Part shown: positions 5,500 through 18,702 of the stretch, piece after piece
Layout of the letters: the number at the start of each line of letters is the position of its first letter
Position numbering within the stretch: the first letter of the stretch is position 1
Assembly (NCBI GenBank): GCA_000002435.2
Contig: CM018790.1
Reading direction: 5' to 3' (one strand)
DNA length: 64,000 nucleotides
Source of the DNA: Giardia intestinalis
Lineage: Eukaryota
Notes under the pieces: generated by a model
What the model saw: the letters and a program-made list of their open reading frames with translations, nothing else
The model's database searches: none
What the model was told of the DNA's origin: nothing
Position numbers and translations under genes: made by a program

Positions 5500-7044
5500 A
5501 TGGCAACAGCCCTCATCTTAGCAGGAGGGAAGGGGACACGTCTCAGACCAATGACAGACAGCACGCCCAAGCCGCTGCTGCGAACCCCACACCGGACAAT
5601 CCTCGAAACCCAGATCCAGAGCCTCTACGAGCACGGTGTGCGCTCTGTGTATGTCCTCATTCATCAGTCTCAGCATGACTCTTACAAGGCGTGCGTTGAC
5701 AGCCTTGATGTAAGGCACCACATGCAGATAGTCTTGGTTACAGAGCACGAGTGGTTGGGAACAGCAGGCGCTGTTGTTAGCTGTTTGTGGGCCTACCCGG
5801 AGCTTTCCAAGCTGACACACATCCTCATCATGAACGGAGACGTTGTCTGCCGCTATCCCTTCTCATCGTTGATCTCTACCTACAAGTCGCAGAACTGCGC
5901 GTGCCTACTAACACACTTCTCCACTCGGGACCCATCGCAGTATGGGCTGCTGAGGCTGACCAGAGAAAACGGGCCGTCGGCTCTGTCACTGTCTGAATTA
6001 TCAGATCGGCCCTCACTGCCTTCCTCCTCCGCGGGCTCTGAGCTGAGCGAGTCCTTATCCGCTGGAGACGGGCTGCTATCGTCCTTCGGCCCTGCTAGCT
6101 CTGCCGAATCAGCAGACATCCTATTCGAAGATCCCACCGACGCCAGCGCCGAGAGTGACAGCGTGGCATCGGTCTCCTCAGCGGTCGATGCACGCCAAGT
6201 AATGAGGATAAGAGATTATAACCGAATCCACCGCGGTGGAGCAAGCATCGCAAGGGTCTCCACGCCACACCTCCCCAGCTCTCCGGCGGGACTGCGGGTC
6301 AACAGCCGTCGAAGCGATAGAACTAGGAGCAGGTCCAGAGATAGGCCCAGAGGGGGTGTGCAGATGGGATCCCTGGGACCGCAGCTGGACTTGTCGTACG
6401 GGCAGATATCTCTGGTGGACTGCTCAAACAGACACTTGCGCTCCCTCCCCACTCAGACCGCCTCCAGAACCTCCACACGATCATCCTCGGGCGCCACCAT
6501 CCGTCTGGGCAGGGTGTCAGCGTTCATAGAAAAGCCTTGTTTTGTGGCAGTGGAGAGCCAGCAGGACAGAGCTGGCCACGGAGTCTCGTATGCAAATGCC
6601 GGGATCTATGTCATCAACCCCGCTCTCCTGCTGGCGTTCCCGGTCCCCTGCTCTATGGAGCAGGGAGTCTTTCCCATCCTTCTGTCACGGAAGCTGGACG
6701 TGCTGTCGTTCTACATCGGCACGGAGAAGACGTGGAGTGACATGGGGACCGTCGCGGGATTTATAAGGGGGTGTCAGCTGTTGAACGGAGTCCCGGCGTT
6801 TGACCAGGGCTCAAACTCATCCACACGGCTGGGAAGTGAGGCACACAAGTCTATGTCAAAGAATGGCCTTCGGGGCAATGTCACAGGCGACGATGTGCGT
6901 ATCGCGAGGGGGGCGCACGTCGCCAACTGCGTAATATACGACAATACAGTCGTGCCGCCCGGAGTGCATCTGGAGGGATGCATTGTTTGTTCAGGGGAAG
7001 GGCTGGCGCAGGGCAAGCACTATTACAACAAAATCATACCTTAG
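5500..7044 (+). CDS. Mannose-1-phosphate guanylyltransferase (GDP-mannose pyrophosphorylase) homolog. A roughly 180-aa Ser/Arg-rich low-complexity insertion splits the catalytic domain.
   Basis: MATALILAGGKGTRLRPMTDSTPKPLL matches the NTP-transferase signature (GMPPB [25 protein letters not shown]). Other matches are LGTAGAV, ILIMNGDVVCRYPF, AFIEKP...ANAGIYVINPALL, EQGVFPIL and a C-terminal left-handed beta-helix hexapeptide (GDDVRIARGAHVANCVIYDNTVV). TATAAAAG sits immediately upstream of the ATG. Confidence 0.75.
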   Translation: MATALILAGGKGTRLRPMTDSTPKPLLRTPHRTILETQIQSLYEHGVRSVYVLIHQSQHDSYKACVDSLDVRHHMQIVLVTEHEWLGTAGAVVSCLWAYPELSKLTHILIMNGDVVCRYPFSSLISTYKSQNCACLLTHFSTRDPSQYGLLRLTRENGPSALSLSELSDRPSLPSSSAGSELSESLSAGDGLLSSFGPASSAESADILFEDPTDASAESDSVASVSSAVDARQVMRIRDYNRIHRGGASIARVSTPHLPSSPAGLRVNSRRSDRTRSRSRDRPRGGVQMGSLGPQLDLSYGQISLVDCSNRHLRSLPTQTASRTSTRSSSGATIRLGRVSAFIEKPCFVAVESQQDRAGHGVSYANAGIYVINPALLLAFPVPCSMEQGVFPILLSRKLDVLSFYIGTEKTWSDMGTVAGFIRGCQLLNGVPAFDQGSNSSTRLGSEAHKSMSKNGLRGNVTGDDVRIARGAHVANCVIYDNTVVPPGVHLEGCIVCSGEGLAQGKHYYNKIIP

Positions 7045-7840
7045 GCGCACTCGAGAGCGTCAGTTTCGTTCGTATCCTCGTTAGGTGAGTATCTACGACA
7101 TTGAAGATATCTTCCGCCACCTGCTCGGCCGTGGTCTCGACGAATGGGCAGTCAATGCCACCCTTTTCCCAGAGGCCGGACAAAAAGTTGCCAGGGTATA
7201 TTTCCTCTACGTGTGCATGCGGTAAGTCATGTCGAGCACAGTCCACCAGGCCACGGAGAGCAAACTTGGCCACACAGTACGGGCAGCAGTCGACGGTTCC
7301 TTCCCAACTAAGGGGATCAGAGCCGACGGCCACATAACAGCAGTACCTGTTCCCCGAAAGAGTGGGGAGATACCGGAGGCTTTGCTGCATAGGCAGGACG
7401 TGCGCAGAAATGGCATCCAGTATGTCCTGCGGTGTCGTCTCCCCCACAGAGCGGCATGCAAGGGCTCCTGTACAGGTGACAACAGCAATGAGAATGCCCT
7501 TGCCACGCTGCTGTGCAGGTGATGGACGGCTGGTGCCTGCATACCATGCCTCGGCCTCGTCCAGGCTTGAGCACGCAATACCCAACTCACCCAGTAAACG
7601 CTCATAGGTAAGCCAGAACTGGTCTGCAGACGGGTCTCCACGTATGATGCGCAGCCTCTTGTAGCAGGAAGCAGTGGAGGCGGGGGCCCTTTCCGCATCT
7701 TCAAGAAGCGCATCCAAAGACCCGGTATCCGCGCGATCGCGCACCTGTGCATGCACAGAGAACCCTTCGAGGAGAAGCTTGCAGGTTACAGCAACGCCCA
7801 GGGTACCGTTGGCGCCCAGGACCAGAACAAATAGAGACAT
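7034..7840 (-). CDS. NAD(P)-dependent short-chain dehydrogenase/reductase (SDR family).
   Basis: It has an N-terminal Rossmann motif (VLVLGANGTLGVAV) and a catalytic YxxxK (PYCVAKFAL). It is 268 aa, and ATG is confirmed at 7838-7840. Its 3' end overlaps the GMPP stop by 11 nt. Confidence 0.65.
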   Translation of the reverse strand: MSLFVLVLGANGTLGVAVTCKLLLEGFSVHAQVRDRADTGSLDALLEDAERAPASTASCYKRLRIIRGDPSADQFWLTYERLLGELGIACSSLDEAEAWYAGTSRPSPAQQRGKGILIAVVTCTGALACRSVGETTPQDILDAISAHVLPMQQSLRYLPTLSGNRYCCYVAVGSDPLSWEGTVDCCPYCVAKFALRGLVDCARHDLPHAHVEEIYPGNFLSGLWEKGGIDCPFVETTAEQVAEDIFNVVDTHLTRIRTKLTLSSAPKV

Positions 7841-7872
7841 TTCCCACTCAAAAAAGAGGCGACCGGGACTCG

Positions 7873-10800
7873 ATGCACACAGCGAGGCGCGTCGGCGAGC
7901 TGCTCAATGTCTTCTACTTGCTAGAGGATCCCCGGAGCGCAGCATATGGCCGCACCTCACCCACTACACTTACTCCACCGGCAGGTATCCAATGCTCCGA
8001 CAGCCAGATCCTCACAAGGGGCATTCTGAACTTCCAGGGCGTCCTGGAGAGGCTCCGCATTGCATGCGACTCTGAATACAGCCTTTACAGCCCCGTCACA
8101 GCTTTGTTGGAAGGCCAGGAGCACTTTCGCCCCCTTGGAGCAAAGCAGCAGGGTTCCCGGTCGGACGCTAGTCACGAGCGGATAGGACGGCCTCCCAGGC
8201 GGACTACTAATTACGTTAGATTTTACGACTGGCATGTCTGCTCCTGCATATTGTCACCGTTAGAATTGAATACTTTCCAGCGAGCTTTACGGGTGCTGCT
8301 GGAGGTCAAGCAGCCAATAAAGATCACATCAGATATAAGTGTCAATCCAGGAGAGTGGATGCACCCCTATGGAAGCAGCAAACCTCTTCACATCATAGCA
8401 AATATGGGTAGACAGCGTTCTTCTGATGCAACACTCTCTCCATTACTCACCCTATCATATCAACAGGATGCATACACAGCGGTAGAAGAGGGTCCAGAGC
8501 CAGTAAAAGCGTCTTCTCTTTTGCCTGCCGTAACTACTTGGTTGAAACATCCTCCAGCACTATCTCAACAGTCATCCCACTCACTAGGTTCGGCAGAAGC
8601 ACTTTCTAATACAGGACTACTCAGTGGCTACTTTATAGGCAGTTTTCTCTCTCAGCCACTACAAAGGAATAAACTACTGAGCACAAGGCAGGCAAATGCA
8701 GGGACAGCTAGCGGTACTGCAGACGCACAATTACAGCCTGCAGAAGATTGCAATAGGATGAGCGGTGATGTATCATTGTATGCCTACGAGCCTCTGTGTA
8801 CTAGTACTTATTCGCAGTTTGGAGAGCCAACGAGTCTATCAGACACGTTTTGCAGACAGCCTTCTGATAACTTTAATCAACCTGATAGTAAGACCGAGGA
8901 GGAGGAGCTCACTCCAGAGCTCTCATCTAGAAACATATGCACATTGCAGACGGCAACTGCCGATGGAATAGCCATATTGGGTGAATATTTTAAGAACGAG
9001 CGGCTTTGGAAACAACAAACAGCGGCTTTCCTAGCTAAACGCGCGGTTATGTCTATCGAGGATAGGCTTCGACAAAGAAATCGCCTAAAGTCTTCCCCTA
9101 AGACCGAAGCTGTCCTCATAGAGCAATTTTGGTCGACCGTTACTAAGGCTATCTCGCTGAGGGCTACAGATGATATAAATAACGAGGAAATTATGTGCCT
9201 TGTGCGCGATTCTGATGATAATTCGCAGAACTATGGGCACAGTAATCACCCACCAGAGATAGAGCACCGAGCTGCAGCTGACAATACTATAGAGCTCTCT
9301 GAGCTGGCTCCGTTTGCAGACCCTCACTCTCCCGTGCCTCCGTTTGAGCCACTGGAGGTTGCTGGGCCCAAACACATAGACTGTGAGTCTCTTTATTGCA
9401 TGGATGGAAACCTTATCCAAGGAGTGGGCGCTATAAGTGCATCTATGCCTGCCAAGCCTACCATGCAAATAGGGTCGGTTGACCATACAGACACGCCTCA
9501 CCTGTGTCCACTTTATCAAAATGTGCGGCAAATATTCAGGCTTTTCAGTGCAGACCTATCTGTGTCTCTTAACCTTTTGCAGATTCTATTCACTAATCTT
9601 ATTCTAAAGTTCCTCACGCTTTCTCAACTGCTGAGTCTTTCTACTTCTACATGCTGGTATCACACTGTCACATTTGTAATAAGAACAGGTCGAATTATGG
9701 CCGTTTCGATCCGTCCTCAACAAGGAAGTAAGTTCTTGTTTAGAGCCAGAAAGACCACACATAGGCAATCCTTTTTACAACTACGGTCCTCCTACAAGTA
9801 CCTTCCAATGGATCTGGCGCTGTTGAATGCCAGCTACCAAGTCCATAAGCAACAAAAGACACCACAGGAAGGCTTTCTGGCTCGCTTAGAGATCACCAGA
9901 GCTGCCGTTTGCCGTTTGCTATACCTGCACCCTTCAGCTCAATACACACCAGAGACCCATTCGATAACACAGCTCTTTATGCTGTCGGACCAAATCTCGG
10001 CACACGGTCTCATTCTAGAAACCCGCTTCTTTATGGAGCATTCACTTCTCTTGAATAACAACACCGAGCTTTCCACGTTAACAGAGGTAGACGTTCTCAT
10101 CAAGTTCTTGACAGAGTACTTGATGTCTGAGCCGCTCTTTGACTTTGGTTCATTTAACTCTGACATCCTATTGTCCGAATACTATCTCAAGCATCAATTA
10201 CCAGGCAAAGAGAGCTGCTCCTTGACTAGTTCACATTCCCGTAGTGCTTATGACAGCACTTTAGTAAAGCCATTAGCACTAGAGCAAGTATCTGAGAAGA
10301 AAGATAACCGAGTGTATGATCAACGGGACCATCTTAACCACGAAGCTGTCATGCTCTATAATCAGCTCTTAAGCATATATAAAGACACACTTCCATTATT
10401 CTTTACCAAAGCGGACGATTCGAAAAGCCTGCCTAAAAGGCAAACCGAGCTAGACATGGTAGTACCCTACCTGTACTACCACCCCAATATTAGGCACCTT
10501 TTGCCATACCAGGCGCACATGCTCCTGGGCGTTTCTGCTTCCTATATTACAGGGAACAATTCCTTTATTATACGTGCGCCGAGAAAGGTTGGTGTACTGC
10601 GGTTTGTTATATCAACGTTTCTAACACGGTCAGCTGCTCTGCAAAATCTCAGGTATGCGTGCGCAGGGATGCATCTTGAGGGTAAGGGTGTTGCAGGCCT
10701 CAAAGTGCCCAATCAGATTGCGCCTTCCGCAACGAAAAAAGACTATAGCTCTGCTTCACTAGACGGCATGCTAAGGAGAGAGCAAGTGCATCTGGTACTT

Positions 10801-13800
10801 TGCGAAGAAGGAAAGGTAGAAGGGTTTGTTAACATGTACATCAGATTGCTCTTCGGAGCGCGTGTGTATGACGTCGTTTCCAGAGAAATGTTTGGCCAAA
10901 ACGTGGACCAATTCTTACTTGATATGAAATCACGGAAGCTTTCGCAAGAGCATACACATGTAGATGATGTATCCTCTGTAGCAGACCATTGCTCGGGGCA
11001 GTCTAGCACATTCTATCCTAGCTCTGTGTCTCCCATCAACTTTATGGATATTCTTGGCCAGAAGATGCTGCTGGATGATATGGAGTCTACTCTTTTTATT
11101 ACTATTCTTTCCTGCAATCCGCATCGGAACAGCGTTCCAGTAGCAGAAATCACGAAAGGTACAGCGTTTGGGCCTCTTAAGCCGCGCTCAAGCAACAGCA
11201 ATGTGTTTAGATGCATGAGTTCGAGCGACTGCAACCCTGCAACTATCAGCTTGCCATATGCACGCCGCTGTGAGGCTTCACACAAGCCTTCTCGTGCGAA
11301 TGACGCGTCTTATTTGGGGATGGAGTTGCTAGACACCAATCCCGTCGACTCAGAACGCCATGTACGGTGTGTATCCTATGTTATTGGGCCTGAAGCCGAA
11401 AACCAAAAGACTATCAGTGTTCCGTCGCGCATTGTGTTCAACCTCTTCGATCAACTGCACGGATTTCAGCAGAGCTCGAACCAGGTAGATCAGCCTACCT
11501 CTATCAAAGTATTTGTAGTAACATACGATGCGTTACATTATAACTATGCCTATACAAATGGACAGATCCTATCTCTTATTAAAGAGGCTAAGCGATTAGA
11601 CACCCTGGTGGTCCACAGGATTAAGGACCATGCACCACATTTGCCAATACACATGTACAAGGCCGATTTCATCGTCAGTGTTGAGAGTGCATATCTTCTC
11701 AACAAGGGTGACGATCTGCGACAAGAGGAGGAGACCAGGAAAAAGTTGCTCCAGCTCCAGAGTGCGCACTCCACAACTCTCACAGATAAGGCCTCTATCA
11801 AGCAGCTACAGACCCACGATAAGCGTGCCACAAGTAGCGTTACAATCTATTCAAGTGCGCCTTCACATGAACGGATTTCGCAGCCATCGTGTACGGGAGA
11901 CCAGACGGTCCTGTCAGAGCAAAACGATCCTTCTCCCCTAGGCACAGACCGGCAAAGTGAGCAGAGCTACATTTTATATGACACAGTTAGTGCGCCCAGC
12001 AGTAGTTTGACGCGTGTGATTGAGGATACCCCTGTGCACCTACTCTTCTTCGATCTCGTAGCTTTAAACTATGAGCCCTCCACTCCTGTGCTCACTAGCA
12101 TCTATGACATGAAACTGCTGGATAAGGTCCTTACTGATCCCGCAATTGCACTACTCTTCTTGGACGCCTCTAAGAAGGGTTCTTGTAGTATCTACCTCCA
12201 CGATATTCACGGCTATGGCCCACAGATCGCTTATCGCTTCCCCAATCTTCAACATATTCCGCTGGTTGTTCCGAGAAGAGACAGACAGTATGTGCAGGAT
12301 CTCTCACCATCAGACTATTTCGCACACTTTCCGCTACATCAGCAAGTGGTCGATGTTTGCAACCCATACTCTTTCGACGTCATTGCACCGAGCAAGCGTG
12401 GTACTACTCTACAATCAGTGACCACGTTCGGTGGCCCATCTTATTCTTACCCTTTATCTTACCCTTTAAGGAATTTCTCATCAAAGTTCAGAACCTCTGA
12501 TCAATCTATTTCAGACGACACACTTAAGCTTGTCACTAAGTTCATTTCATTTGATAGCTTCATAACTGATTTAAATGCAAGCTATAACGCACTTCTTGTT
12601 CAGCACCAGATAGTAACTGCCAAGCACGGAAGCACAAGAACCAGGCACAGTACGAATTTCTGGTCACATATGGGGGCATATATGAATCCCGTGGTTCTCA
12701 CTACTACGATGAATGTTAGCTCGCTAGATAGTGTTGCATCCATTCTTGCACGGTCACACAGTATAGCATTTGGCCGTGGTTCTGAGGGAGCTTGGCTACG
12801 GATGATCGACTCAGATCTATGGGATAGCTATGCGTATCCGCATACATTCAGTAGCATATGTAACAGTATGATACGCCACAATGCTAGGTTTCCTTCAGCA
12901 TATAAAGACTCTTTGGGATCCTCCTTGGATATGACAGTTGTCTCCGATATTCGGCGATCCTTCCCCGAGAAGTATCTCAATGCTATGATATCTCACCTGG
13001 AGCATTTACAGCAGCTTTGGGTGCGTACAGATGGAAGTCTTTTTCTCATTCCTGCAGCACCGCGGGCAGCTCCACGCTCCAGCGTGCTTAGCAATTATCC
13101 ATCCGATCAGTCAACAGCACAGACCCTTTCTCACAACATGTCTATCCCCTTTTCTGTCTATGACAAGCTCTTTATAGATTTCCAAAAGACCGTAGAGACA
13201 AATCACAATCAGAAATCTCTCTGTTTTGTTTCGTCTGGAGACTCATGGAGCAACATCTCACGTTCTGTAGTGTATCAAACGCGGTCTATTTCACTCCTAG
13301 TTGCGATAGAGCTTATTGACATCTTCAAGCGCCTCCTGTATAGGCAGACACCACATGGTAAGCTCAACAATCATACGCCTAACCCCATGCTTCAAGCCAG
13401 CTTTGAGGCAGGATCTTTTTCTGCAAAGGATCGAGTAAGCAAACCTGTGCTTGATATGCTTGCGAGTCAGTTGAATGAAACGCTTGTCAGGATCGAGACG
13501 ACTGCCAAAAGTCTGCTCTTCTCTGCATATCATTCGTATCACACGAGCATGTGCTGTACCACGCAGCAACTCACATGCCTCCAGCCAATGGCTAAGCTTG
13601 AGAAGATGGACCGATTGCCGAACTTAGTGGTTTTCTCATTACTGAATACAATTCGGCTTACGATCATCCTTCCCCGCTACACGCAATTGGTGTGTGCTCA
13701 AGCCAGGCCAAAATTGTATGGTGATCCATGCATCTGTCCGCACGCTACCAGTACGTTTGCTCGCATCAAGAATAAGCTGTCCTATGCAGTGGAGCTGAAG

Positions 13801-16800
13801 AACAAAGCAACTTACGTGTTTAAGATACCGTTTAAGACGCAAATTCAGCCGAAATACCTCAGCATGCTCCACAAGCGCCCCCTTCTACAGCACCTGTATC
13901 AATTAGATAATCAAAACACACGCAACTTACACGATAATTTCTTTAATCGCATAGACTTTTCCTCAATGCGGTCCAGGATTGAGGCCAACAACAATAGCAT
14001 ATCGCAATATGTAGGCTCTCTTCTATTTTTCTACAGAATGTTACTGAGTATAGATGCCAATATTAGTAGCAGCACCACAAGTCGAGACACTCAGTTCGTA
14101 GTGGCTTTTCCGTTCGCTCATAACTTTTATTCGTCTGTGACCATGCAGCTTTTAGGATCTGCCCCAAGCGGCCACATGCTCGATAGTTTTGGCTGCCTCC
14201 TTCCCTTGAAGCTGGTCACTTACAGCGCAACTCAACATCCTATCTATTCAATAACTCGCGAAGACAAATTAGTTGGGGGCTTTTTAATCGCCTCGTCAAC
14301 CCCCAATGACATCAGTCTCTACTCCATCAACTGTGGTGCTAGTGCTATAAGTAGGGGGAAAGACTCCACTGTACCAGACAATCCACCTTCGTTACTCTCT
14401 GCTTTCCTTAATGAAATCAATCCCTCAGAAGAGGATACTAACGTGGAGTTACTGTCATCTATGCTGGTCATGTGTGGTAGGCTGTGCTGTGCTACGTGTC
14501 CCTTATCCTCTATGATGTATAAAATCCTTGCAAATAGTACAAGTGGAGTGCTTGCGTCTGCCGTGAACCTGATAAGGCTTCTTACCCAGGAAATCCATAC
14601 ACTGAATGTCATATACACCGAAACCCCCGTAATAGTTGCCGTATGCTTTGCTATACGACGGCTTTTCATCGAGTTTGGCCTATATGGCAAGAGGCATAAG
14701 CCGACAGCAGAAATAATAAAGCAATCCTATCGCAAGTACAGACAGGAAGCGCATAAATATAAGTTCGGCGATGACCATGCCACGCTTTGCCCTATGTCCC
14801 TACAGAGATTGAATAACGTAACATTGGCGTCTGCCATGTCGAACGCGAACAAAAGTGCATCCAATGTCAACAGCAGTCCGCCACTTTCCAATGATAGTCC
14901 CCGTGGTTCCAATTGCTTTAATGTCCGCTATACTGACGCTTCACAGTCATCCAACGAAAATCAACGAAGCAAACAGACAATTAATGGATGTCTACCCTAT
15001 AAAAAAGAAAATTCCTACAATAGAGTGCCACTTTCACCCCCAGAATCTTCTATAGCAAGAGAGCTCATCGAAAATAAGGGTGTAGCTGACAGGCATACAC
15101 CGTCAAGGGTCCTCTACATATCCACCAAGGAGCCACCTAGAAAGCGCGGGATTGCCTCAAAGGCAGATGAATTAGGACAGATTACCGCAAGTATTCGGTC
15201 AGAGATATCTGCCGTCGACGCTGCAGAACGTGCAAACGAGCCCTCGGAGGGCTCCAACGATCTTTCAGAGTTTTGCCAGAGCACACAACCAGAGTATGCT
15301 TCTAAGTGTACCACCAGCTTGCTGTATTCAAGGGAGCAGGGGGTCACCGGGGCCCCCACTGATGGAGTGGGAAACATGTCTGCGCTACTAAAATCCCACA
15401 CTGAAGAAAGGATCAGCAAGCCATACACCCTGTACCACGATAACTCGGATGACAATGAGCACGACATCGATGATGCTTTCCTTAGGACTATGGGCTTTAA
15501 CTTTATCTTAGTGCTGGTAAGTACCCAAGACACCTTACAGATGCTTGGGGCAATCATGGGTTTCTCATTGGGAGATTGCAACGCTAACATCATCATACCA
15601 AAGAGTAACGAGGTCTTAGCATACATCACGCCTACTACATCTGCTGCAACAACGGTATCTTCCATAGGCAGGAAGAACTTAGCCTACATAGGTCTATCGG
15701 AATTATCCATTCAATCAAAGAAAAGCTGCTACGATAACAATATAAAGACTACTACTGAGGCCCAGGAACCGATACTACGAAACCTTGCAAACGAAGAAGG
15801 AAAGTGTATTGTTCTCCAGACAGTGGCAGACTTCATTGACAGCGTCGAGCGCTTTAGAGACGCTCAGCGAATCCACCTATTTGCGATGCCATGCGTCCAA
15901 AATATATTAATAGTAGAAGCTATTCATCGGGCGAATATGGCCGAGAAGATCATATGCTGGTCAAGTCCGCCTTTGTACAGAGCTTTTGATCACTTATTGG
16001 CGGACGTTGCAATAAGTGCTGAGCTTCTAGAGAGGTTGAGACCCGTCGGCATGCCCTTTCAGGATGATATTACGTCACTTCCTGAAGAGCTTCAATACAC
16101 TATCCTGAATCAAGCAGGAAACAGGCCGCTGCAGCAGCTCCTAGTATCAATCGTGGGACTGATAAAAGAATTTGGTTATAACATATCCCGCTTTTCTATT
16201 TTCGATGACGACCCAGCACGATTTGCGATGCCCAAGTTCGACTCTTCTATGGAGCAAGAGTCTCTTAGCACCGAGTCGCAGATTGATGCAGAGAAGATGT
16301 CAGATGAATTTCCTAACAACGGCAGGCATGACGCTGAGATTACAGAATGTGACCCCCAGCCTACTACAGAATATACCTGCAGAACAGAGCCGCCCGAATA
16401 TTCGTTTGTGCTAGATTGTAATCATAAAAATAATAGACATACAAGCGTCCTTCAGAGGTGTGTCAAGCATGCTATTCGTGAGAAATTTCAAGAGGGCTTT
16501 TCTGTGGGGCCAAACGCGGAAGATTTTGATATTCGGCACAGCCTAGAACCACTTGGTGTAGAAGGCATACAACACCCAGAATACAATTCGGTAGAAAAAG
16601 ATCACGGACAGACAGACGGATCCATCATGCTACATGAGACGCTTGCTGCACTGTCGTCACTGCGTGGTGCATACTCTCAGCTCACATTTCCGCTTCGTAG
16701 TGACATGTACCAGATGGATTTGAGTTGCTGCCCACTAAATATAGTGAAGCTGCTATCACAGGGGGTGTTTTTAAGCAAGCATAGCAATGTAAGTCATTTT

Positions 16801-18702
16801 GACGCCTTTGTCTCATCTTCATGTGCAGGGAAGATGCTAGACTTGAGTGGAGTCAGCGGGACTGGGGGAGCCAATGCCCCGGGAGCTTCGAAATTCCGCC
16901 TCACAAACTTAATAGCTAACATTCTGAGTAACAATCCAAATATTAAAGCGTCTCAAGTATCGAGGGACAACGTCCTTCTAGCCGTACATAGCACTTCTTC
17001 CCTGCCTTCCCTGTCTATAGATGCGTCACTAAACAACCACCCACCCATAATTAATCTCAAGAAGATTGAAAGCTTCTATCCAGTTCGTCTTCATTGTGGT
17101 TCCAACGGCTCAATTACAGAAATTCATGCAGTTACTCCAGAGAACTTAATAGTTACCCATAACAAAGCAGCATCTTACGCCACACGCATGTCCGTTCCAA
17201 TTCCTGCTCTTGCTCCTGATTCACGTATAAATACTATCAGGGGGAGCACCTCAGCCTCTTGCGAAACGGTCAATACCTTAATCAAGCACATTGACAGTAT
17301 AAGCAGAGCCATTATCATAGCGCCTTCTTTATCGGACAAGCTCAAGGTATGTACCATACGTCCATATAAAAGGATAAACCCAGTCACTGTCCTGGGAAGA
17401 GAGCTCAAGCGTACGTTCTACTCGTTATTAGAGGGTGAGGAAAACACCTTCCTTTCCATCGACTTCCCAGAGAGTCAGGTCACGCGCATCTCCCTGTCCC
17501 CAATATCGTCTGCTTCTAGCTTCAAGCGAAACTTAATACCTTTCTGTGAGCGCCAGCTGGTGTATGAAGACCTGCACCCGTCCGACTCTACCCCCTTCAA
17601 GCACCAGCTAATACCGGATAAACCCACAATGAACCTGAATCAGTTTGTGTGGAAGCGGCAGCTTGTGACCAATCTTCTATCAGTATACTCTTCGCACGAG
17701 GTTATTATTAAGAGTCTGCAGCTCCAGTGTAGGATGGCTGAGTATGCTGCGAGATCAGGACCCTCTTCGAACCAAATGAATCAGGAGTATACGAATGCTT
17801 ATCAGCAGATGTACACAATCATACACACGATAGCTTATTCCATCAACGACTCGTTCTCATATCGCTTGCATATTAACAACCAAATATGTAACCACCTAAT
17901 TATGCGGTACAACGAAGTGAGTAAGCTATTGAGAGCCCAGCCGTTACTAAAGAATTCTGCGGAAGCCGTTATATCCATGAGTATAGCGCGAGAAAACAAC
18001 GTGAAGACACTCTATCAATCATTTAAAAACGCCGTTCCCCACCTGCTTTTAACTTCATTCGATAAGAAGGTTATACTGTATCTTCTTAAGCATAGGAAGG
18101 CAAAGTATCCCGAGACGATAGAGATAACCCTCAACCAATACCTTCGTGATAAGTACGCTCCAAGGCTTCCGCCCAATCTGTGCAACAGGGAAGCAGCGGT
18201 ACAGTATATTATAGCCCAAAAGTGGAGTGACACATCCTCTAACCATCTAGTTGAGCACCTGAAAATTAAGATTTTGGCACGAATTGATGAGCTGATAGCT
18301 AACAATATGGACACCGAAGAGGCAGAGCGGAGCCTAATACAGCTGCTTCTATATAATCTCAACTGCAATCACATACTGAGCGGAACATTCAGTGGAATAT
18401 TTAACAATTGCACCACGGTGCAGCACGCAGAAGCAACGGTCAATCTCGCCGCTTCTAACTTTGGGTACAGCACCTTCAAGAGACAAGATATTGCACCCTT
18501 GCCCAAAGAGTACTGTCTAACCATCACTGCTAACCGCTGCACCCCTTCTACCCAACAAACAACCCACGATCTGCCACCTGAACCAAGGCACTTTTCTCTC
18601 AAGAAGGACAACCCCCTGGGCCTATGTTCTGCAGAGGAATATTCTCCTGAGATATATGAACCCCCAGAGTCGTATGCTCAATGCTGGAAGCCCCTTTGGT
18701 GA
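7873..18702 (+). CDS. Giant hypothetical protein of about 3610 aa with no recognisable domain.
   Basis: The track ORF 7747..18702 starts at GTG and overlaps the SDR gene on the opposite strand. The first ATG is at 7873 (MHTARRVGELL). It is uninterrupted for 10.8 kb with low-complexity segments. AGTAAAT lies 5 nt after the stop. Confidence 0.6.
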   Translation: MHTARRVGELLNVFYLLEDPRSAAYGRTSPTTLTPPAGIQCSDSQILTRGILNFQGVLERLRIACDSEYSLYSPVTALLEGQEHFRPLGAKQQGSRSDASHERIGRPPRRTTNYVRFYDWHVCSCILSPLELNTFQRALRVLLEVKQPIKITSDISVNPGEWMHPYGSSKPLHIIANMGRQRSSDATLSPLLTLSYQQDAYTAVEEGPEPVKASSLLPAVTTWLKHPPALSQQSSHSLGSAEALSNTGLLSGYFIGSFLSQPLQRNKLLSTRQANAGTASGTADAQLQPAEDCNRMSGDVSLYAYEPLCTSTYSQFGEPTSLSDTFCRQPSDNFNQPDSKTEEEELTPELSSRNICTLQTATADGIAILGEYFKNERLWKQQTAAFLAKRAVMSIEDRLRQRNRLKSSPKTEAVLIEQFWSTVTKAISLRATDDINNEEIMCLVRDSDDNSQNYGHSNHPPEIEHRAAADNTIELSELAPFADPHSPVPPFEPLEVAGPKHIDCESLYCMDGNLIQGVGAISASMPAKPTMQIGSVDHTDTPHLCPLYQNVRQIFRLFSADLSVSLNLLQILFTNLILKFLTLSQLLSLSTSTCWYHTVTFVIRTGRIMAVSIRPQQGSKFLFRARKTTHRQSFLQLRSSYKYLPMDLALLNASYQVHKQQKTPQEGFLARLEITRAAVCRLLYLHPSAQYTPETHSITQLFMLSDQISAHGLILETRFFMEHSLLLNNNTELSTLTEVDVLIKFLTEYLMSEPLFDFGSFNSDILLSEYYLKHQLPGKESCSLTSSHSRSAYDSTLVKPLALEQVSEKKDNRVYDQRDHLNHEAVMLYNQLLSIYKDTLPLFFTKADDSKSLPKRQTELDMVVPYLYYHPNIRHLLPYQAHMLLGVSASYITGNNSFIIRAPRKVGVLRFVISTFLTRSAALQNLRYACAGMHLEGKGVAGLKVPNQIAPSATKKDYSSASLDGMLRREQVHLVLCEEGKVEGFVNMYIRLLFGARVYDVVSREMFGQNVDQFLLDMKSRKLSQEHTHVDDVSSVADHCSGQSSTFYPSSVSPINFMDILGQKMLLDDMESTLFITILSCNPHRNSVPVAEITKGTAFGPLKPRSSNSNVFRCMSSSDCNPATISLPYARRCEASHKPSRANDASYLGMELLDTNPVDSERHVRCVSYVIGPEAENQKTISVPSRIVFNLFDQLHGFQQSSNQVDQPTSIKVFVVTYDALHYNYAYTNGQILSLIKEAKRLDTLVVHRIKDHAPHLPIHMYKADFIVSVESAYLLNKGDDLRQEEETRKKLLQLQSAHSTTLTDKASIKQLQTHDKRATSSVTIYSSAPSHERISQPSCTGDQTVLSEQNDPSPLGTDRQSEQSYILYDTVSAPSSSLTRVIEDTPVHLLFFDLVALNYEPSTPVLTSIYDMKLLDKVLTDPAIALLFLDASKKGSCSIYLHDIHGYGPQIAYRFPNLQHIPLVVPRRDRQYVQDLSPSDYFAHFPLHQQVVDVCNPYSFDVIAPSKRGTTLQSVTTFGGPSYSYPLSYPLRNFSSKFRTSDQSISDDTLKLVTKFISFDSFITDLNASYNALLVQHQIVTAKHGSTRTRHSTNFWSHMGAYMNPVVLTTTMNVSSLDSVASILARSHSIAFGRGSEGAWLRMIDSDLWDSYAYPHTFSSICNSMIRHNARFPSAYKDSLGSSLDMTVVSDIRRSFPEKYLNAMISHLEHLQQLWVRTDGSLFLIPAAPRAAPRSSVLSNYPSDQSTAQTLSHNMSIPFSVYDKLFIDFQKTVETNHNQKSLCFVSSGDSWSNISRSVVYQTRSISLLVAIELIDIFKRLLYRQTPHGKLNNHTPNPMLQASFEAGSFSAKDRVSKPVLDMLASQLNETLVRIETTAKSLLFSAYHSYHTSMCCTTQQLTCLQPMAKLEKMDRLPNLVVFSLLNTIRLTIILPRYTQLVCAQARPKLYGDPCICPHATSTFARIKNKLSYAVELKNKATYVFKIPFKTQIQPKYLSMLHKRPLLQHLYQLDNQNTRNLHDNFFNRIDFSSMRSRIEANNNSISQYVGSLLFFYRMLLSIDANISSSTTSRDTQFVVAFPFAHNFYSSVTMQLLGSAPSGHMLDSFGCLLPLKLVTYSATQHPIYSITREDKLVGGFLIASSTPNDISLYSINCGASAISRGKDSTVPDNPPSLLSAFLNEINPSEEDTNVELLSSMLVMCGRLCCATCPLSSMMYKILANSTSGVLASAVNLIRLLTQEIHTLNVIYTETPVIVAVCFAIRRLFIEFGLYGKRHKPTAEIIKQSYRKYRQEAHKYKFGDDHATLCPMSLQRLNNVTLASAMSNANKSASNVNSSPPLSNDSPRGSNCFNVRYTDASQSSNENQRSKQTINGCLPYKKENSYNRVPLSPPESSIARELIENKGVADRHTPSRVLYISTKEPPRKRGIASKADELGQITASIRSEISAVDAAERANEPSEGSNDLSEFCQSTQPEYASKCTTSLLYSREQGVTGAPTDGVGNMSALLKSHTEERISKPYTLYHDNSDDNEHDIDDAFLRTMGFNFILVLVSTQDTLQMLGAIMGFSLGDCNANIIIPKSNEVLAYITPTTSAATTVSSIGRKNLAYIGLSELSIQSKKSCYDNNIKTTTEAQEPILRNLANEEGKCIVLQTVADFIDSVERFRDAQRIHLFAMPCVQNILIVEAIHRANMAEKIICWSSPPLYRAFDHLLADVAISAELLERLRPVGMPFQDDITSLPEELQYTILNQAGNRPLQQLLVSIVGLIKEFGYNISRFSIFDDDPARFAMPKFDSSMEQESLSTESQIDAEKMSDEFPNNGRHDAEITECDPQPTTEYTCRTEPPEYSFVLDCNHKNNRHTSVLQRCVKHAIREKFQEGFSVGPNAEDFDIRHSLEPLGVEGIQHPEYNSVEKDHGQTDGSIMLHETLAALSSLRGAYSQLTFPLRSDMYQMDLSCCPLNIVKLLSQGVFLSKHSNVSHFDAFVSSSCAGKMLDLSGVSGTGGANAPGASKFRLTNLIANILSNNPNIKASQVSRDNVLLAVHSTSSLPSLSIDASLNNHPPIINLKKIESFYPVRLHCGSNGSITEIHAVTPENLIVTHNKAASYATRMSVPIPALAPDSRINTIRGSTSASCETVNTLIKHIDSISRAIIIAPSLSDKLKVCTIRPYKRINPVTVLGRELKRTFYSLLEGEENTFLSIDFPESQVTRISLSPISSASSFKRNLIPFCERQLVYEDLHPSDSTPFKHQLIPDKPTMNLNQFVWKRQLVTNLLSVYSSHEVIIKSLQLQCRMAEYAARSGPSSNQMNQEYTNAYQQMYTIIHTIAYSINDSFSYRLHINNQICNHLIMRYNEVSKLLRAQPLLKNSAEAVISMSIARENNVKTLYQSFKNAVPHLLLTSFDKKVILYLLKHRKAKYPETIEITLNQYLRDKYAPRLPPNLCNREAAVQYIIAQKWSDTSSNHLVEHLKIKILARIDELIANNMDTEEAERSLIQLLLYNLNCNHILSGTFSGIFNNCTTVQHAEATVNLAASNFGYSTFKRQDIAPLPKEYCLTITANRCTPSTQQTTHDLPPEPRHFSLKKDNPLGLCSAEEYSPEIYEPPESYAQCWKPLW

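Follow-up and report, generated by a model that had tools for sequence, protein, structure and literature searches.

The 64,000-nucleotide stretch of Giardia intestinalis DNA analysed here (assembly GCA_000002435.2, contig CM018790.1), which is called the window throughout, harbours a complete gene for GDP-mannose pyrophosphorylase (GMPP) whose nucleotidyltransferase domain is interrupted by a Ser-rich insertion (Table 1). The product of this open reading frame (ORF) is 100% identical to XP_001708774.1 / UniProt A8B958 from Giardia intestinalis WB (assemblage A), which carries the annotation "Mannose-1-phosphate guanyltransferase". An original prediction, made from the letters of the window without database searches, had proposed that a low-complexity insertion of about 180 residues lay within the catalytic domain of this enzyme, at nt 5960-6500, and such an insertion was indeed found at aa 158-335, corresponding to nt 5971-6504.

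Table 1. Features of the GMPP gene and of its insertion (nucleotide positions are those of the window; aa, amino acid residues; pLDDT, predicted local distance difference test; dN/dS, ratio of nonsynonymous to synonymous substitution rates; A and E, assemblages)
Feature	Residues (aa)	Position (nt)	Strand	Evidence or characteristics
GMPP coding sequence, complete	514 aa plus stop	5500..7044	+	Single frame; ORF listing and match to XP_001708774.1
N-terminal part of nucleotidyltransferase domain	1-157	5500..5970	+	Pfam/PDB alignments; pLDDT 85-97; dN/dS A vs E 0.077
Insertion, 178 aa	158-335	5971..6504	+	Gap in every alignment to canonical enzymes; pLDDT ~30; dN/dS A vs E 0.29
Acidic Ser-rich arm	158-229	5971..6186	+	Net charge -11; Ser+Thr 33%
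Conserved basic block, DARQVMRIRDYNRIHRGGASIARVSTPHLPSSPAGLRV	230-267	6187..6300	+	Identity 68-82%; dN/dS 0.04-0.23
P259-S260-S261-P262	259-262	6274..6285	+	Motif scan and alignments; P259, S261 and P262 invariant across all Giardia lineages
Hypervariable RS-rich spacer	268-293	6301..6378	+	dN/dS 0.6-0.9 in most pairs; identity 16-58%
Ser/Thr-rich return arm (QLDLSYGQISL...)	294-335	6379..6504	+	Identity 50-76%; dN/dS 0.12-0.29
Post-insert strand and catalytic motif GRVSAFIEKP	336-346	6505..6537	+	AlphaFold strand 336-343; F342, E344, K345 and P346 invariant
Second Giardia-specific expansion, in catalytic loop	347-365	6538..6594	+	AlphaFold helix 348-358, pLDDT 60-78
Short C-terminal beta-helix domain	456-514	6865..7041	+	Sub-threshold Pfam; short strands with pLDDT >90

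The closest sequences of known structure in PDB were human GMPPB (E=9e-22, 7d72_K), Arabidopsis VTC1 (4e-18) and the Leishmania GDP-mannose pyrophosphorylase (GDP-MP; 1e-17), and the first family beyond the GMPPs appeared at 1.6e-9; GMPPB and VTC1 were also the top folds retrieved by Foldseek for the AlphaFold model. Once the insert was removed, the top NCBIfam model was mannose-1-phosphate guanylyltransferase (E=1e-39, 136 bits against a model cut-off of 440), followed by a runner-up family at 2e-26. In the intact protein the Pfam NTP_transferase match was broken into two stretches, in addition to which Pfam detected there a weak LbH match and no further domain; cutting the insert out in silico yielded a single unbroken match (residues 4-244 to profile positions 2-237 of 245, E=1e-31). 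In the same way, the alignment with human GMPPB 7d72_K covered residues 4-156 and resumed at residues 364-492.

The catalytic apparatus of the enzyme was found to be complete. The N-terminal part of the domain carries the signature LAGGKGTRLRPMTDSTPKPLL (aa 7-27), LGTAG and NGD, and the residues G9, G10, G12, R14, P17, T19, P23, K24 and P25 of the signature were invariant or nearly so in 72 homologues. The invariant columns of this 72-sequence alignment comprised GGxGxRLxPxT..PKP, LGTAG, N-G-D114, FIEKP, NAG-Y and W-S-D414-M-G, and the FIEKP motif with the catalytic Lys (aa 342-346) showed no variation. The putative Mg2+ ligands, D114 (NGD) and D414 (WSDMG), were also invariant, and their equivalence to Leishmania D118/D226 is one of alignment position only. 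A non-catalytic paralogue of the GMPPA type was considered and rejected, in that GMPPA (7d72_A) matched at E=6.4e-4 versus 9.2e-22 for GMPPB and the catalytic columns are unbroken. By homology and modelling, the host protein is a GDP-mannose pyrophosphorylase of the GMPPB/VTC1/PSA1 type (EC 2.7.7.13), with fold and catalytic residues intact, and it would catalyse the reaction Man-1-P + GTP -> GDP-Man + PPi; no publication on the biochemistry of Giardia GMPP, its insert or its phosphorylation was found in the searchable literature.

The insert is preceded by ...QYGLLRLTREN and followed by GRVSAFIEKP, and the spacing from YG to EKP amounts to 194 residues, compared with 14-15 in chytrid and microsporidian homologues and in P0152, a homologue from a relative of Giardia that is described below. 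Among ~270 other homologues fetched, the whole distance from the G-loop to EKP was 140-160 residues. In the AlphaFold model, the insert is bracketed by strand 150-156 (GLLRLTR), the last of the N-terminal part, and strand 336-343 (GRVSAFIE), which in canonical enzymes are joined by a tight turn of 3-4 residues (...VVCEADTGRIHRFVEKP). By cryo-EM, the sheet order of Leishmania GDP-MP is 3-2-1-4-9-10-6-7-8, in which the beta8-beta9 loop with F(V)EKP constitutes the catalytic loop, and the Lys of this loop shifts 5-8 Å upon ligand binding (PMC9424295). From alignment and topology, we infer that the Giardia insert takes the place of the beta7-beta8 turn (Leishmania numbering), at the outer edge of the sheet and directly upstream of the catalytic loop. 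The split between QYGLLRL and AFIEKP described in the original prediction was recovered in the divided Pfam match and in the GMPPB alignment, as well as in the YG-to-EKP spacing, and its picture of canonical GMPPs as compact proteins of about 360 aa agrees with the 344-379 aa of the canonical enzymes.

Relative to the core, the insert is enriched in Ser (23% vs 8.3%), Arg (11.8% vs 5.4%), Asp (6.7% vs 3.9%) and Ala (9% vs 6.5%), contains no Lys or Trp, and has a lower local sequence entropy (2.7-3.0 vs 3.3-4.1 bits). The block had been characterised beforehand as rich in S, A, D and E, which holds for the first three residues; the fourth was an error, since Glu is not enriched (3.4% vs 3.9% in the core). 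A Pfam search with the insert alone returned zero matches even at E<=1. An origin from foreign DNA was considered and set aside, for the GC content of the insert (0.61) is slightly higher than that of the flanks (0.55-0.57), yet its GC content at third codon positions equals theirs. A tandem-repeat or slippage origin was likewise rejected, given that Tandem Repeats Finder (score >=30) detected no repeat in the insert.

Several lines of evidence concern whether this segment is part of the mature protein. The frame is open through the insert in independent assemblies, including WB, other A isolates, several B isolates, the assemblage E sequence P15 and metagenomes, and in a free nucleotide alignment of the insert each indel was a multiple of 3. 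Substitutions in the insert were distributed over the first, second and third codon positions as 32/27/52 between assemblages A and E (p=0.009) and as 55/42/100 between A and B (p=7e-7), and the excess at the third position was seen in every lineage comparison. The dN/dS ratios were calculated by the Nei-Gojobori method, and dS is unsaturated in the pair A vs E, for which the C-terminal core gave 0.157, to be read beside the values of the insert and of the N-terminal core in Table 1. These patterns show that the insert is translated and that purifying selection acts on it.

Giardia introns are marked by 5′ GTATGT and 3′ [AC]CT[AG]ACACACAG. A Giardia-type intron was rejected, as the 3′ consensus [AC]CT[AG]ACACACAG occurs nowhere in the window and the sole GTATGT (5649) falls in the conserved N-terminal domain, and an intein was rejected, as the insert matches no Pfam family and hence no Hint domain was detected. 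With independent assemblies, in-frame indels and no splice signals bracketing the insert, the view that the gene lies in one frame and reflects neither an intron nor an assembly artefact was upheld. Two ORFs in alternative frames overlap the insert, at 5880-6137 (-) and 6236-6529 (+, other frame), with 85 and 97 aa, respectively; as the codon-position bias favours the GMPP frame, both probably arose as a by-product of a GC-rich, low-complexity composition.

Assemblages A, B and E all carry the insert at the identical site, as do two lineages of greater divergence (runs ERR3333378 and ERR3333379), which may be the dog assemblages C and D of project PRJEB32663; the YG-to-EKP spacings are 194-202. 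Searched exhaustively with a profile, a set of 1.8 billion representatives yielded the G. muris orthologue TNJ29933.1 (451 aa), in which the insert comprises ~128 aa and the spacing is 143. A BLASTP comparison restricted to the inserts of A and G. muris yielded E=4e-7, with 37% identity over 115 aa anchored in the basic block, which indicates that the two are homologous; by this sequence homology, the insert arose before the divergence of G. muris and G. duodenalis, and its four-part layout has been kept since. The comparison of insert length across assemblages that the original prediction had suggested thus gave spacings of 194-202 in the G. duodenalis lineages and 143 in G. muris, and the lineage-specific insertion that it had offered as one possibility matches the presence of the insert in five G. 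duodenalis lineages and G. muris, with dN/dS <1. As a side observation, the GenBank protein of assemblage E (P15, 452 aa; contig ACVC01000074.1, L005:2812-4359) is N-terminally short by annotation; followed further upstream, to MTTALILAGGKGTRLRP, its ORF encodes an orthologue of 515 aa in which the catalytic signature is complete.

Outside Giardia, three homologues were informative. The first, P0152 (L011:5001-5966, Logan SRR31929897), lies on a gene-dense, eukaryotic contig of 55 kb and encodes a 321-aa homologue with the canonical turn YGKVVCGEDGRITNFCEKP and no insert. The EF1-gamma encoded by this contig is 43% identical to that of G. muris, and that of G. muris is 51% identical to a G. 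duodenalis-like sequence, from which the P0152 organism is taken as an outgroup to G. muris and G. duodenalis. P0152 apparently lacks any beta-helix domain, and its called start is probably too far upstream. The other two, P0160 (735 aa; L012:501-2708, Logan SRR14944325) and P0168 (848 aa; L010:5001-7547, JGI metagenome 3300010163), are encoded by GC-rich, apparently intron-poor eukaryotic contigs. A clade uniting the Giardia GMPPs, P0152, P0160 and P0168 obtained 95% bootstrap support, while the grouping of P0160/P0168 with Giardia that leaves out P0152 was weak (59.5%).

P0160 and P0168 present an Ala/Pro/Gly-rich expansion of 170-190 residues at the same hairpin, together with three further long inserts, and the four long inserts of each protein are Ala/Ser/Pro/Gly-rich. 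Homology between their hairpin insert and that of Giardia was sought and rejected, as no similarity was detected (E=65). The hairpin expansions of P0160/P0168 and Giardia would reflect either a common origin or recurrent expansion at a permissive site. A clade-profile search of a word index for further named relatives returned, beyond the known Giardia sequences, only bacterial NDP-sugar synthases.

The alignments divided the insert into four parts of very different constraint. The acidic arm, which has a net charge of -12 when delimited as 73 aa, kept a length of 72-73 aa and a charge of -9 to -12 in all five G. duodenalis lineages, in which the basic arm kept a charge of +9 to +14; the Ser content of the insert was 21-24% in every lineage, and Arg was not conserved (5-12%). 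The acidic arm also holds a semi-conserved ESLSxxDxLL patch, and the AlphaFold model of the G. muris enzyme shows a low-confidence helix at the equivalent patch. At the other end of the insert, the return arm is mostly missing from G. muris in the alignment.

Between the arms lies the basic block, with the pattern VD.RQ[VI].RI..Y.RIHR..G..I[AS]R....H.P.SP, in which D230, H244, R245, I250, R252, H257, P259, S261 and P262 are invariant, G. muris included. In terms of identity and substitution, this 38-aa block is conserved to the same degree as the catalytic core. A motif scan located P-x-[ST]-P only once in Giardia GMPP, at aa 259-262 within the block, and P-x-S-P fits the minimal consensus of the proline-directed MAPK/CDK kinases. 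P259-x-S261-P262 is consequently a candidate proline-directed phosphosite, with the putative kinase class read from the motif. An enrichment of CK2 sites was also sought and rejected, the insert having 5 such sites and the core 8.

The spacer that follows the block includes the RS stretch RRSDRTRSRSRDRPRGG (aa 270-286, nt 6307-6357). Relative to A/E, the spacer of the other assemblages contains a 6-residue insertion. The RS/SR dipeptides of the insert number 9 in A/E, 3-5 in B and the two divergent lineages and 2 in G. muris, and outside A/E the Arg residues of the stretch are swapped for Lys or lost. As estimated from these substitutions, the RS spacer evolves almost neutrally and its RS-richness is specific to A/E. 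The RS-dipeptide stretch to which attention had been drawn from the sequence is therefore present, but as a headline feature it did not hold, being the least conserved part of the insert; similarly, the description of the insert as a low-complexity block was accurate, although it is not uniformly featureless, with aa 230-267 conserved like the catalytic core.

The AlphaFold model of Giardia GMPP had a mean pLDDT of 69, with a core above 90 and values below 50 (~30) at aa 163-329, so that the insert loops out of the fold, which was the outcome that modelling had been proposed to look for. A short helix of low confidence was predicted at aa 240-246, within the basic block. In the G. muris model, pLDDT was below 50 for residues 180-231 and 248-274, and low-confidence helices at 171-181 and 233-248 fell on two conserved patches. 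Only about six sequences cover the insert in the alignments, so that its low AlphaFold confidence amounts to weak negative evidence on folding. These models thus predict that the insert is mostly non-globular and sits in a loop at the surface of a fold that is otherwise intact.

These results altogether favour the reading that the segment is a genuine, translated, Giardia-specific insertion, consisting of a flexible tether that carries a conserved short linear motif, likely with a regulatory or docking role, and we place the probability of this reading at roughly three in four. The variable arms would act as a flexible, charge-segregated tether, and the basic block (aa 230-267) would be a short linear motif that probably serves for docking or as a phospho-switch, and whose P-x-S-P could be phosphorylated by a proline-directed kinase of the MAPK/CDK type; the motif might in this manner place the activity, oligomerisation or localisation of the enzyme under the control of signalling. 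With its anchorage only a few residues away from the catalytic loop, the insert would be well placed to affect catalysis. The regulatory or phospho-rich loop suggested in the original prediction is likewise a hypothesis.

Some observations weigh against this interpretation. The Uversky charge-hydropathy analysis placed aa 158-229 and, marginally, the insert as a whole on the 'folded' side, and the basic block, the spacer and the return arm on the 'disordered' side, and in view of this equivocal result the disorder call rests on AlphaFold confidence and low complexity. The helix in the basic block, besides its low confidence, is not amphipathic: an amphipathic helix was rejected, as in each of the six lineages the hydrophobic moment did not exceed that of shuffled sequences. 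About a third of the insert (~50 aa) is lacking in G. muris, whose N-terminal arm is not net acidic. Binding of 14-3-3 proteins was also rejected, as a motif scan found neither the mode-1 nor the mode-2 consensus. Finally, no phosphorylation, partners or regulatory effect of the insert were found in the searchable literature, the supplement of PMC5913674 included, and no Giardia phosphoproteome or 14-3-3 client list containing GMPP was found there.

The main rival explanation is a neutral expansion, according to which an insertion-tolerant turn would have grown by slippage and drift and would be functionless, with its conservation reflecting solubility or fold constraint only. It accounts well for the spacer, where aa 268-293 are near-neutral and carry indels, and it would be equally at ease with the ~50 aa missing from G. 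muris, with the absence of any structure seen by AlphaFold and with the unrelated low-complexity inserts of P0160 and P0168 at the same hairpin and in three other loops, which suggest a permissive site. It does not account for the basic block, however, whose dN/dS of 0.04-0.23 equals that of the catalytic core and nine of whose residues are still invariant in G. muris, a comparison in which synonymous sites are saturated; moreover, arm lengths, Ser content and charge segregation are constant over five lineages. A purely neutral origin is for these reasons considered unlikely.

Still less probable is a hidden fold, in which the insert or its conserved parts would fold, or become ordered in the oligomer, for instance by forming a new interface that offsets the short beta-helix domain, AlphaFold having missed it for want of more than six sequences. 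Ser at 23% with low sequence entropy, the absence of any Pfam match for the insert, the quick sequence turnover outside one 38-aa block and a pLDDT of ~30 over 167 residues all speak against such a fold, even though the alignment over the insert is very shallow, charge-hydropathy assigns a 'folded' character to the acidic arm (aa 158-229) and to the insert as a whole, both models show weak helices at the two best-conserved patches, the C-terminal oligomerisation domain is truncated, and interfaces are essential in the Leishmania enzyme. That the segment is absent from the mature protein, be it as an overlooked intron, as an intein or through an error of assembly or annotation, can practically be dismissed, for although a domain broken by 178 residues is unusual and the P15 annotation of GMPP is wrong at the 5′ end, six lineages from independent assemblies have an open frame here and all their indels preserve it, the substitutions in the insert reveal purifying selection and third-position bias, and neither bracketing Giardia splice motifs nor, by Pfam, an intein (Hint) domain is present.

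Besides the insert, the Giardia enzyme departs from its relatives in two other regions. In the catalytic loop, the gap from EKP to NAG is 19 residues here and 19-23 in Giardia apart from G. muris, which has 16, versus 8-10 in canonical enzymes. At the C-terminus, the last ~60 aa matched the Pfam families LbH_EIF2B with 20.8 bits (cut-off 54) and Hexapep with 16.1 bits (cut-off 27), and the alignment showed that the beta-helix deletions of Giardia GMPP are common to P0160 and P0168. From these matches and the model, the Giardia beta-helix domain is present but truncated. In Leishmania GDP-MP, the subunits meet through the signature motif, the C-terminus and the beta-helix domains, and the beta-helix domain and extreme C-terminus are essential for oligomerisation and activity (PMC9424295). 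By analogy, given that a domain essential in Leishmania is truncated in Giardia, the quaternary structure of Giardia GMPP may differ from that of the Leishmania enzyme.

These departures would allow the flexible-tether reading to be carried further, with aa 230-267 and their invariant P-x-S-P serving as a phospho-dependent switch or docking site which, held beside the F(I)EKP loop, would be a built-in regulator of GDP-mannose synthesis and would functionally replace both trans-regulation by GMPPA and the full beta-helix interfaces, and with the hairpin being an ancient expansion site of the wider clade. This more elaborate proposal is tentative and rather improbable.

Downstream, the GMPP gene shares 11 nt (7034-7044) at its 3′ end with the 3′ end of a convergent ORF of 268 aa (7034..7840, -), which has SDR/NmrA-like Pfam matches, all sub-threshold; the same 11-nt convergent overlap was observed in other assemblage A loci and in P15. 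An ORF of 3651 aa (7747-18702, +) begins just downstream of this gene pair, and its counterpart in related loci has 3608 aa and no Pfam match on record.

GDP-mannose is the donor for the synthesis of dolichol-phosphate-mannose and of glycosylphosphatidylinositol anchors. The insert, the longer catalytic loop and the truncated oligomerisation domain make the regulation and quaternary structure of Giardia GMPP probably unlike those of the human enzyme, and such differences bear on selective inhibition; the Leishmania counterpart is being pursued as a drug target (PMC9424295). The insert also provides a compact test case of a disordered insertion in which one short motif and the overall pattern of charge and Ser persist as the remaining sequence drifts, and its hypervariable spacer could be a marker for assemblage typing. 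Lineage-specific low-complexity insertions are familiar from other protists, and a full-length annotation of the GMPP gene has existed for a long time. New here are the exact structural site, an age reaching back to at least the Giardia crown group, the four-part layout with a core-like motif, and the finding that constraint on the insert is weakest in the very RS run that catches the eye; otherwise, this is an ordinary case of a well-known phenomenon, in a gene that had been annotated before.

The canonical GMPPs of known structure (GMPPB, 7D72-7D74; VTC1, 7X8J/7X8K; the Leishmania enzyme, 7WHR-7WHT) have the two-domain fold in common with the Giardia protein, and share with it the motifs GGxGxRLxPxT...PKP, LGTAG, N-x-D, F(V/I)EKP, NAG-Y and W-x-D-x-G. 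They differ in their length of 344-379 aa, with a turn of 3-4 residues where Giardia has 178 aa, and in turn the Giardia enzyme has ~11 extra residues in the catalytic loop and a beta-helix domain of only ~60 aa. P0160 and P0168 share the short beta-helix domain and a WSD[LM]GT motif with Giardia, whereas their Ala/Pro/Gly-rich hairpin inserts are devoid of its conserved block.

Giardia proteins are, in general, unusually compact. In-frame hydrophilic low-complexity inserts in loops of housekeeping enzymes, variable among related species and predicted to be disordered, are known from Plasmodium, Toxoplasma and Dictyostelium, and the Giardia insert differs from these in its core-like conserved block and in having no tandem-repeat origin. 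With the RS domains of SR proteins, which are substrates of SRPK/CLK kinases, it shares a short Arg-Ser run, RTRSRSRDR; an SR-type RS domain was nevertheless rejected, as the 9 RS/SR dipeptides are few and unconserved, the dN/dS of the spacer is 0.6-0.9, and Pfam finds no RNA-recognition motif. A precedent for loop regulation is the C-loop of GMPPA, a regulatory insertion of the inactive human paralogue that contacts and inhibits GMPPB (PMC9424295); like the Giardia insert it is a family-specific loop insertion, and it serves the allosteric control of GDP-mannose synthesis. The C-loop, however, is short, belongs to a catalytically dead paralogue and acts in trans, whereas the Giardia insert spans ~180 aa within the nucleotidyltransferase domain of a catalytically intact enzyme.

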